Virus record (IMG/VR): IMGVR_UViG_2706794662_000007
DNA: 64,000 nt
Origin: a virus
Lineage: Duplodnaviria > Heunggongvirae > Uroviricota > Caudoviricetes
Strand: one strand, 5' to 3'
The position numbers and the translations under genes were made by a program. The notes under the pieces are model-generated. The model searched no databases, was not told the DNA's origin, and saw nothing but the letters and a program-made list of their open reading frames with translations. Below, piece after piece: positions 14,756-15,814 of the stretch. The number at the start of each line of letters is the position of its first letter. Position 1 is the stretch's first letter.

Positions 14756-14858
14756 AATTGCACCATTAAGAAATGATTTGTTTAATGATGCAATTATTTC
14801 AAAAATAAAAAGGTGCTAAATAGAAATTAACAGGCAATACTTAAAATAAAGGCATTGA

Positions 14859-15533
14859 CTAATCATACTTGGATGTATTTATAACCAGGACTTTATTTGT
14901 ATATAGTTTTTTTACATTCCATGTAACATTACTTGAATACCATTCACCATTATATATTTGGTTTCCCGTTGCGCCTGTCATTGTTACGTATACAGGTCTG
15001 TCGTAAGGTGTTCGTCTATAGTTATATACTCCAACCATTGCAGGCATTATCGCACACGGGTATCCCATATTTATGGTAAATTGAGGATTTGTAATAGTGA
15101 TAATCTCTGCATCAAGGGGCATCATCTCACCGTGATATACCATTTTACCTGCGCTATTATACATGGCAATACCATATCCTGAATGTGGTAACACCATATC
15201 AGAAAAAGCATAAACTGTTATCGTTCCGGGGTTTCCTCCAACCTGATTCAGTCTGAGAACATTATACCCATCTCTAAATTCATGAACGAACATCATATTC
15301 GCCTTATTACTGCTTTTTATAAAGAAAAAACATGATTTGTTCGACGGTATTGAAGTCTTAAAAACAGAACCTTTAGACGTGGACATTGTCCCCCTATTAA
15401 TCAAATTTTGCGGTGTAAATTCTGGACTCATCCACACATTACCATTTGACTGAGTAATTGACATCCCGAACATTATTGTTATCCCCAATATGTATATATA
15501 TAAGATCCAAGTCCCTTGTATAAATTTGACCAA
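14859..15533 (-). CDS. hypothetical secreted/membrane protein in AT-rich island
   Basis: 224 aa with hydrophobic N-terminal segment, N/Y/G/T-rich; local GC visibly lower than flanks. Confidence 0.45.
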   Translation of the reverse strand: MVKFIQGTWILYIYILGITIMFGMSITQSNGNVWMSPEFTPQNLINRGTMSTSKGSVFKTSIPSNKSCFFFIKSSNKANMMFVHEFRDGYNVLRLNQVGGNPGTITVYAFSDMVLPHSGYGIAMYNSAGKMVYHGEMMPLDAEIITITNPQFTINMGYPCAIMPAMVGVYNYRRTPYDRPVYVTMTGATGNQIYNGEWYSSNVTWNVKKLYTNKVLVINTSKYD

Positions 15534-15760
15534 CTTACTGTATTGCCGTTAATAGTGATAGTTGGTGTAGGTATATTTACATGGTTATCGTTATTTAAAG
15601 GCATCAATGAGCACACAGCATGTAATGATTTGCCAGGTGGTGGATTTGGGTAAGTCTTAGAGCCTGACGTGGTTGTAAATCGATCAAGAAAAAAAATAGG
15701 AGTAAGGAAGCCGGTAACGTTAACTCCCTTATTATTGTAGATCCCTGTACCGTATGCCAT
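15479..15760 (-). CDS. hypothetical protein (overlaps downstream ORF; possible frameshifted N-terminal part)
   Basis: 93-aa ORF overlapping 14859..15533 by 55 nt in another frame. Confidence 0.3.
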   Translation of the reverse strand: MAYGTGIYNNKGVNVTGFLTPIFFLDRFTTTSGSKTYPNPPPGKSLHAVCSLMPLNNDNHVNIPTPTITINGNTVSWSNLYKGLGSYIYTYWG

Positions 15761-15814
15761 TTTTCATCCTTGTTTTTATCAACATAATATGGCCGATCAT
15801 GCGGCCATATCAGA

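Follow-up and report, generated by a model that had tools for sequence, protein, structure and literature searches.

A low-GC island of an SSU5-like phage-plasmid encodes a gene pair that probably forms a split receptor-binding module for the tail tip

The DNA analyzed in the current study (IMG/VR record IMGVR_UViG_2706794662_000007; 64,000 nucleotides of a virus of the Caudoviricetes, hereafter the window) contains an AT-rich island encoding two small proteins of 93 and 204 amino acids (aa). The 1.2 kb around the island is 100% identical to p09EL50 (NC_018651.1), a 109-kb SSU5-like phage-plasmid of E. coli O104:H4 2009EL-2050, and the window holds the replication and nucleotide-metabolism half of this element, with the tail genes lying outside. 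The island-bearing segment is also encountered on ~105-115 kb plasmids in ~150 of 5,426 complete E. coli genomes, mostly at ~87% identity. The features of the locus are as follows.

14814-15835, strand not applicable: inserted low-GC (guanine plus cytosine) island, 1,022 bp long, where empty-site siblings have ~100 bp; GC content 35%.
15479-15760, minus strand: 93-aa gene (WP_021547933.1), PHROG 557; proposed adaptor, corresponding to the N-terminal domain of receptor-binding proteins made as a single chain.
14859-15473, minus strand: 204-aa gene (WP_014962271.1), PHROG 425, with its ATG start at 15473; proposed receptor-binding subunit.
15474-15486, minus strand: gene junction, in which the 93-aa gene ends with TAA (15481-15479) and 5 nt separate it from the ATG at 15473, with a GGGGA Shine-Dalgarno sequence at 15486-15482.
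15787-15810, minus strand: perfect 9-bp hairpin, ATATGGCCG-CATGAT-CGGCCATAT, a sequence reading.

A preliminary description of this DNA, made from its letters and open reading frames (ORFs), had placed here a secreted 224-aa protein with an N-terminal hydrophobic segment, together with an overlapping 93-aa ORF. The 224-aa protein corresponds to ORF 14859-15533, the longest-ORF reading from an upstream TTG, whereas RefSeq and all homologues use the ATG at 15473. From this start the 204-aa protein begins MFGMSIT, the homologue N-termini read M-[FY]-G-M-S-I, and the PHROG 425 profile match opens at residue 21 of the 224-aa ORF. The 20 extra residues arise where the DNA for the invariant C-terminus of the 93-aa protein (GSYIYTYWG) is read in another frame, and it is to these residues that the hydrophobic segment is confined: the maximum 19-residue Kyte-Doolittle score is 1.83 when they are included and 1.12 from the true start of the 204-aa protein, while the 93-aa protein reaches 0.79. 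The true N-termini, MAYGTGIYNN and MFGMSITQSN, contain no hydrophobic stretch and no K or R within the first 8 residues. With the ATG at 15473 as the true start, there is therefore no signal peptide, nor is there a lipobox, and the secreted protein has to be abandoned. The 93-aa ORF is indeed present at 15479-15760, but its overlap with the larger ORF (15479-15533) vanishes, leaving a 5-nt gap. The order of stop, spacer and Shine-Dalgarno sequence at the junction suggests that the two genes may be translationally coupled; in the pEC332_01 allele, the spacer between them is 2 nt. The hairpin lies just past the stop of the upstream 189-aa gene, within the right edge of the island, and the AAGGA Shine-Dalgarno sequence of the 93-aa gene (15771-15767) is located downstream of it. 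An empty-site plasmid carries another, GC-rich hairpin at this place. The island hairpin has no T-run, and a terminator scan gives no call there.

The compositional part of the preliminary description is borne out. Positions 14760-15800 have a GC content of 35.4% vs 45.7% for the window mean, the lowest of all 1,041-bp segments in a sliding scan (mean 45.5, standard deviation 3.0; 0.05th percentile). The combined share of Asn and Tyr is 16.7% in the 204-aa and 19.4% in the 93-aa protein, the window maximum, compared with 7.6 +/- 2.1% in 42 other minus-strand ORFs of at least 150 aa. The beta-rich composition is matched by an AlphaFold2 model in which the 204-aa protein is all-beta. Low GC is partly a family trait, as the pair lies below local GC in 10 of the 11 genomes examined (the exception being Bas15), with the p09EL50 allele being the most AT-rich among them (GC content at third codon positions, 32%). 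Codon use of the pair resembles that of the tail fibre genes. p09EL50 encodes four tRNAs (Ser-UGA, Thr-UGU, Tyr-GUA and Asn-GUU; window 57689-58512), and their codons are enriched 2-3 times in the pair (14859-15760): per 1000 codons, the counts are 104 vs 45 for Asn, 70 vs 31 for Tyr, 50 vs 15 for ACA and 33 vs 14 for TCA. The enrichment of Asn, ACA and TCA, though not of Tyr, extends to J and the tail fibre genes, but dnaE and nrdA do not show it. Codon use adds weak support to the receptor-binding module proposed below.

The sibling plasmid NZ_LR882992.1 has the same backbone and aligns with both flanks (window 13500-14813 at 96% identity and 15836-17200 at 91%), but has 100 bp in place of the 1,022-bp island, such that nothing else separates its DUF4942 gene from the 189-aa gene homologue that comes next. 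The island is therefore an insertion. Among complete E. coli genomes, the empty site is uninterrupted in 63 plasmids, compared with the ~150 carrying the island. Of the moron-type compositional island that had been proposed, a low-GC, horizontally acquired accessory cassette can thus be retained, though not the exported moron protein. No convincing target-site duplications or repeats were detected at the island borders. Just beyond the island, the conserved flank contains a 16-nt inverted repeat at 14754-14797 (ATAATTGCACCATTAA / TTAATGATGCAATTAT, 94% complementary, 12-nt loop) over the start of the DUF4942 gene. It is present in the empty-site plasmid as well and could be an operator or regulatory hairpin.

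Both proteins are full-length members of phage protein families. By profile match, the 93-aa protein belongs to PHROG 557 (E 1.4e-29, residues 1-93 of 93) and the 204-aa protein to PHROG 425 (E 4e-69, residues 1-204 of 204). AlphaFold2 models the former as a beta-sandwich (predicted local distance difference test, pLDDT, 84.5), and its family is kept as a separate gene in ~278 phage records. Comparison of p09EL50 with the common pEC332_01 allele yields ratios of nonsynonymous to synonymous substitution rates (dN/dS) of 0.075 for the 93-aa gene and 0.11 for the 204-aa gene, with no internal stops. Both genes are under purifying selection and the cassette is functional. As a separate family member with its own dN/dS, the 93-aa ORF is not the frameshifted N-terminal part of its neighbor that it had been suspected to be. 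In the same comparison, the synonymous substitution rate (dS) is 0.65-0.84 in the pair vs 0.08-0.16 in the flanking genes. That the pair is far more diverged than its flanks indicates allele exchange, a pattern to be expected at host-range loci.

Annotation of these families is both sparse and misleading. Scans of both proteins and their neighbors with Pfam, NCBIfam and PADLOC returned nothing for the pair, and neither the family profile nor fused relatives matched any sequence in the PDB; only fold comparison found the Oekolampad protein discussed below. RefSeq labels the pEC332_01 allele WP_000467662.1 (L002, 3160-3774) as a 'cysteine peptidase family C39 domain-containing protein', but Pfam and NCBIfam give no match at all for the p09EL50 allele, and the label looks spurious. 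A bulb-lectin reading of the repeated G-x-x-I-x-N-x-x-G motif, prompted by one BFVD match so named, was dropped, as there was no Pfam B_lectin match. Databases further refer to both families as 'membrane associated' or 'outer membrane' proteins, and PHROGs files PHROG 425 under moron and host takeover functions. A Lom/Ail-type outer-membrane protein was rejected, as there is no Pfam match at E <= 0.1 and the 93-aa model is a small beta-sandwich. The 'outer membrane protein' name has probably spread from the genuine lom, which is the next gene in Shiga toxin (Stx) phages.

The relationship between the two proteins is clarified by fused relatives. An exhaustive profile search returned 176 cluster representatives, some of which are 309-325 aa in length with a match opening near residue 100. 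The three fused relatives tested (P0083, P0128 and P0185; 309-322 aa) all consist of an N-terminal PHROG 557 portion and a C-terminal PHROG 425 portion. A tblastn search with one of them spans both genes of split loci, in order, and Pantoea phage Vid5 encodes one fused gene directly 3' of a J-like gene. These findings argue for joint action of the two proteins as a single unit in which the small protein is the proximal part. Homologues forming a single uninterrupted cytoplasmic protein, which the preliminary description had named as contrary evidence, occur only as these distant fused relatives (~310-325 aa).

When examining other phages, it is evident that the pair typifies a locus implicated in host recognition. 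Warwickvirus, Hanrivervirus, Dhillonvirus and Webervirus phages have a small-then-large pair directly adjoining their gpJ homologue, and the same-strand small-then-large order is shared by p09EL50, Bas04, Bas05, Bas06, Bas15, Alina, PTXU06 and Ss-VASD. In T1-like siphoviruses, the gpJ-adjacent locus has been termed the 'bona fide RBP locus' (RBP, receptor-binding protein), the alleles of which track receptor use (PMC8594841). Bas04 and Bas06 use BtuB and Bas05 and Bas15 use FhuA (PMC8594841); all four carry PHROG 557 plus PHROG 425 pairs, with the BtuB and FhuA users in distinct clades. AlphaFold3 receptor models generated by others likewise back the assignment of this locus to RBPs (preprint 10.64898/2026.04.02.716166). 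In each of these four phages, a small lipoprotein bearing a classic lipobox goes with the pair, and the actual exclusion proteins of such loci are separate lipoproteins of 72-91 aa. Neither the 93-aa nor the 204-aa protein opens with a lipobox-bearing signal peptide, and a superinfection-exclusion lipoprotein of the Cor, Llp or Rtp45 type was accordingly rejected. The earlier notion of superinfection exclusion or receptor blocking was therefore right in pointing toward adsorption and receptor biology, but the proteins bear no likeness to exclusion lipoproteins.

Sibling phage-plasmids (E. coli LR882992, Salmonella pCFSAN076210 and many from Enterobacter) have a divergent pair (84 + 188 aa) in the tail module, flanked by tail fibre genes on one side and by the lysis cassette on the other. 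Its identity to the p09EL50 pair is 20-30%, and 23-29% in the comparison for which LR882992 and pCFSAN076210 serve as examples. The LR882992 pair (WP_000120169/WP_241547753) shares both its families and its backbone with p09EL50, and its early site is empty, as seen in the one sibling checked. In pCFSAN076210, the tail-module pair is followed by a Cor-like lipoprotein, WP_071930363. At the corresponding site, p09EL50 has a longer tail fibre and a gp38-like adhesin (PHROG 1121). No second pair was detected anywhere in p09EL50 and the island is single copy, while among the 254 plasmids that have a homologue at all, no more than 11 show two matching places. The J protein of p09EL50 (1,568 aa) is T1-like throughout: it aligns with Drexlerviridae J to the last residue, with 33-35% identity in the final ~250 aa, and ends without an additional receptor-binding extension. 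The motif at its tip, IDVYDDNNVLRVRIGRL, is common to Stx ORF71 and similar to the J tips of Warwickvirus and Webervirus.

Based upon these features, we consider it probable that horizontal transfer brought in the island as a split receptor-binding module that serves the tail tip formed by J, a two-part counterpart of the RBP borne by T1-like siphoviruses at the end of their J-like central tail fibre. According to this model, both genes would be translated together during lytic growth and their products incorporated into the virion. The 93-aa protein would serve as a proximal adaptor, the conserved N-terminal half of which docks on the C-terminal tip of J, whereas the all-beta 204-aa protein would be the distal subunit that binds an outer-membrane protein of the next host. 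Receptor binding would then commit the virion to irreversible adsorption and DNA injection. Presumably, the cassette within its early-region plasticity hotspot stands in for the tail-module pair of the siblings. The N-terminal half of the small protein is the most conserved part across all clades, which would fit docking on a conserved tail tip. BtuB can be named, at low confidence, as a first candidate receptor, because the full-length identity of the large protein is 40-44% to the BtuB-associated clade vs 20-24% to the FhuA-associated clade; identity is equally 20-24% to the plasmid tail-module clade and reaches 61% in Stx phages. Identical copies of both proteins are encoded by the isolated phage PhiR41_1 and by CMS-2020a. 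A literature search for the receptor of SSU5-like E. coli phage-plasmids or for phage PhiR41_1 yielded nothing relevant.

Several observations weigh against the assignment of the pair to the J tail tip. Firstly, the putative link of PHROG 425 and PHROG 557 proteins to receptors comes from a genome-phenotype correlation and the aforementioned AlphaFold3 models. Secondly, when ORF72 and ORF73, the equivalent genes of Stx phage Sp5, were deleted singly, neither counted among the nine genes without which plaques or lysogens fail to form on K-12 (PMC5155283), and the pair is hence dispensable, at least in Stx podoviruses. Thirdly, the pair is situated between the DUF4942 gene and a TerB-region gene, rather than beside gpJ or in the tail module: in record positions of the 109-kb plasmid, gpJ is located at 100962-105668 and the pair at 39968-40866, i.e. 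~55 kb away among replication and nucleotide-metabolism genes. Fourthly, J tip and pair type do not co-vary among the phage-plasmids, as the same tip occurs with very different pairs. In a comparison of three plasmids, the J proteins are nearly identical overall; relative to p09EL50, the last 17 residues are identical in LR882992 and differ by one residue in pCFSAN076210, and docking is therefore not proven by co-variation. Furthermore, no exclusion lipoprotein ORF lies in or beside the island, and a tblastn search over the whole of p09EL50 was blank with the pCFSAN076210 lipoprotein as sole query, to the exclusion of Rtp45 and the lipoprotein of Bas04. Such a lipoprotein is similarly absent from Stx phages and Webervirus Alina, which makes it a frequent rather than universal companion. 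In addition, a promoter and terminator scan of the island performed no better than on shuffled sequence and gave no convincing promoter, and one E. coli SSU5-like element was found not to be inducible (PMC9600943).

Some of the same observations would be expected if the pair were instead an accessory and dispensable host-range factor, associated with the virion or its assembly without being the primary binder, which might give access to a second receptor or make adsorption to certain strains more efficient. The Sp5 deletion mutants, which were not among the non-infectious ones, agree with such a role, the long tail fibre and gp38-like adhesin of p09EL50 could suffice for adsorption, and the cassette resides in an accessory hotspot that is empty in the 63 plasmids mentioned above. 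However, both LR882992, the sole empty-site plasmid fully examined, and the Salmonella plasmid carry a tail-module pair, and p09EL50 has a single copy. This pattern points to a needed rather than optional function. The pair is also subject to strong purifying selection, and no feature other than this locus tracks terminal receptor use in Drexlerviridae. We therefore regard an accessory role as unlikely, although it is the strongest of the alternatives.

Less likely again is a moron expressed from the resident plasmid that would protect the lysogen by exclusion or receptor blocking via an exported protein. Its appeal lies in the inserted, low-GC nature of the island, in the filing of PHROG 425 as 'moron, auxiliary metabolic gene and host takeover' and the 'membrane' names in databases, and in the position of the island, which adjoins the DUF3927/TerB genes beside which resistance genes of the same plasmid group insert (PMC9600943). 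When the true starts are used, however, signal peptides, lipoboxes and transmembrane segments are absent from both proteins, the two models show soluble beta folds, the Pfam, NCBIfam and PADLOC scans offer no match, no experimental basis was found for the 'membrane' names, and the exclusion proteins proper are distinct small lipoproteins. Finally, a single gene broken by a frameshift or sequencing error, whether as a pseudogene or through programmed frameshifting, is hardly credible despite the fused single-chain relatives and the 55-nt overlap in the longest-ORF reading, as the split is kept in Stx phages, Drexlerviridae, Dhillonvirus, Webervirus and >250 plasmids, each gene has its own start, stop and Shine-Dalgarno sequence, purifying selection without internal stops is seen in two alleles that differ at 14-16% of nucleotides, and the 93-aa C-terminus is invariant in its own frame.

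Several further observations concern the tail tip and the surrounding plasmid. The J-like C-termini (~17 residues, e.g. IDVYDDNNVLRVRIGRL) resemble an N-terminal motif of both proteins, G-x-x-I-x-N-x-x-G-x-x-V/W (L008 3963-8669, L003 5434-6702 and L009 5644-9069 compared with window 15700-15760 and 15410-15473). This motif could represent a recurring beta-hairpin that serves in docking. Both models have low confidence at the N-terminus (pLDDT 63-75). The 77-aa lipoprotein of pCFSAN076210 (L015, 1765-1998) has a motif, YRAGSVFNWRWV, in common with the Bas05 and Bas15 lipoproteins (AGYPFNFQWV; L018 5986-6213 and L019 6640-6858), which hints that this plasmid clade may target FhuA. Elsewhere in the window, seven runs of N, each ~250-330 nt, are located at 4263-4591, 6780-7032, 9353-9602, 13174-13428, 32187-32449, 42918-43175 and 61635-61884. 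One of them falls within the DUF4942 gene adjoining the island, and an apparent 8% GC dip at ~13.2-13.4 kb is due to this masking. Between ~23.5 and ~35.4 kb, the coordinate offset to NC_018651.1 shifts by 14 nt (window ~35474-36688 corresponds to 60566-61780), indicating either a near-identical source record with a small indel or an N-mask that altered the length. Host-like metG (methionyl-tRNA ligase) and apbC genes at window ~2900-6190 are kept in the sibling plasmid LR882992. A phage-type dihydrofolate reductase at 23070-23546 bears the RefSeq name 'trimethoprim-resistant DfrA51'. It clusters with thymidylate synthase and nrdAB in a nucleotide-metabolism group, and the resistance label may therefore denote an enzyme native to the phage and not a resistance cassette acquired from elsewhere.

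More tentatively, and with somewhat greater doubt than confidence, we propose that SSU5-type plasmids carry a free-standing, exchangeable tail-tip RBP cassette and that the gpJ-tip proteins associated with FhuA, BtuB and LptD constitute one structural superfamily, existing in split (93 + 204 aa) or fused (~315 aa) form. If this were true, the cassette could reside in either the tail module or the early hotspot, the same hotspot that captures resistance genes, and host range could be reset by one 1-kb insertion with the tail genes untouched. The island itself is of practical relevance, as p09EL50-type elements are common in E. coli and some relatives carry extended-spectrum beta-lactamase genes. 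The host range of these phage-plasmids has been described as poorly understood (PMC9600943), and a likely host-recognition cassette provides a concrete target for predicting which strains can be infected. The analysis also corrects the annotations 'outer membrane protein', 'membrane associated protein' and 'moron' across hundreds of Stx-phage, T1-like and plasmid records and links the FhuA/BtuB-type pairs to a structurally solved LptD-binding family.

Relative to known systems, the novelty of the island is modest: pairs of this kind are already known, though poorly annotated, the genomic position is unusual, and what is new are the link between split and fused forms and the fold shared with an LptD-binding protein. 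The loci of the BASEL phages Bas04 (FritzSarasin, bas04_0023-0025) and Bas06 (KarlJaspers, bas06_0024-0026), described by Maffei et al. 2021 (PMC8594841), have the same families, order, orientation and tight spacing as p09EL50, with full-length identities of 40-41% for the large and 49-58% for the small protein. They differ in abutting gpJ and in carrying an 89-aa lipoprotein (LTGC lipobox; presumed superinfection exclusion), whereas the p09EL50 pair is far from gpJ and lacks the lipoprotein. The closest homologues beyond plasmids are Sp5 ORF72/ORF73 (ECs1234/ECs1235) and their equivalents in 933W-type Sepvirinae, with 61% and 66% identity between the p09EL50 pair and the equivalent Stx-phage proteins of Ss-VASD. 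As in p09EL50, the Stx-phage pair has no lipoprotein and the tip motif of the J-like ORF71 matches that of p09EL50 J; unlike p09EL50, these phages are podoviruses and their pair is located downstream of the J-like ORF71 tail gene, before lom.

The third point of comparison is the Rtp44/Oekolampad RBP (PHROG 1265), which binds LptD and for which a complex has been solved (PDB 9rpt; Dunbar et al. 2025, PMC12685063). It shares the fold of its receptor-binding body with the family of the p09EL50 pair, but it is a single chain of 311-321 aa, is 11% identical, falls in another PHROG and is accompanied by an Rtp45-type lipoprotein. Its target, LptDE, should not be assumed for p09EL50. The PHROG 1265 match is weak and partial (E 1.3e-4, residues 41-151 vs profile 159-282 of 332), and alignment of the two family alignments to the single Rtp44 sequence with hhalign is weak as well (E 0.02 and 0.24), and the link to PHROG 1265 thus rests on the PHROG profile matches and the fold. 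A 2026 preprint refers to the receptor-specific gpJ-tip families as unrelated (10.64898/2026.04.02.716166). In our comparison, the FhuA- and BtuB-associated gpJ-adjacent proteins fall in the same two PHROGs (L018, L019, L009 and L017; L013 and L006), and they are tied to the LptD-binding PHROG 1265 by fold and by weak profile matches.

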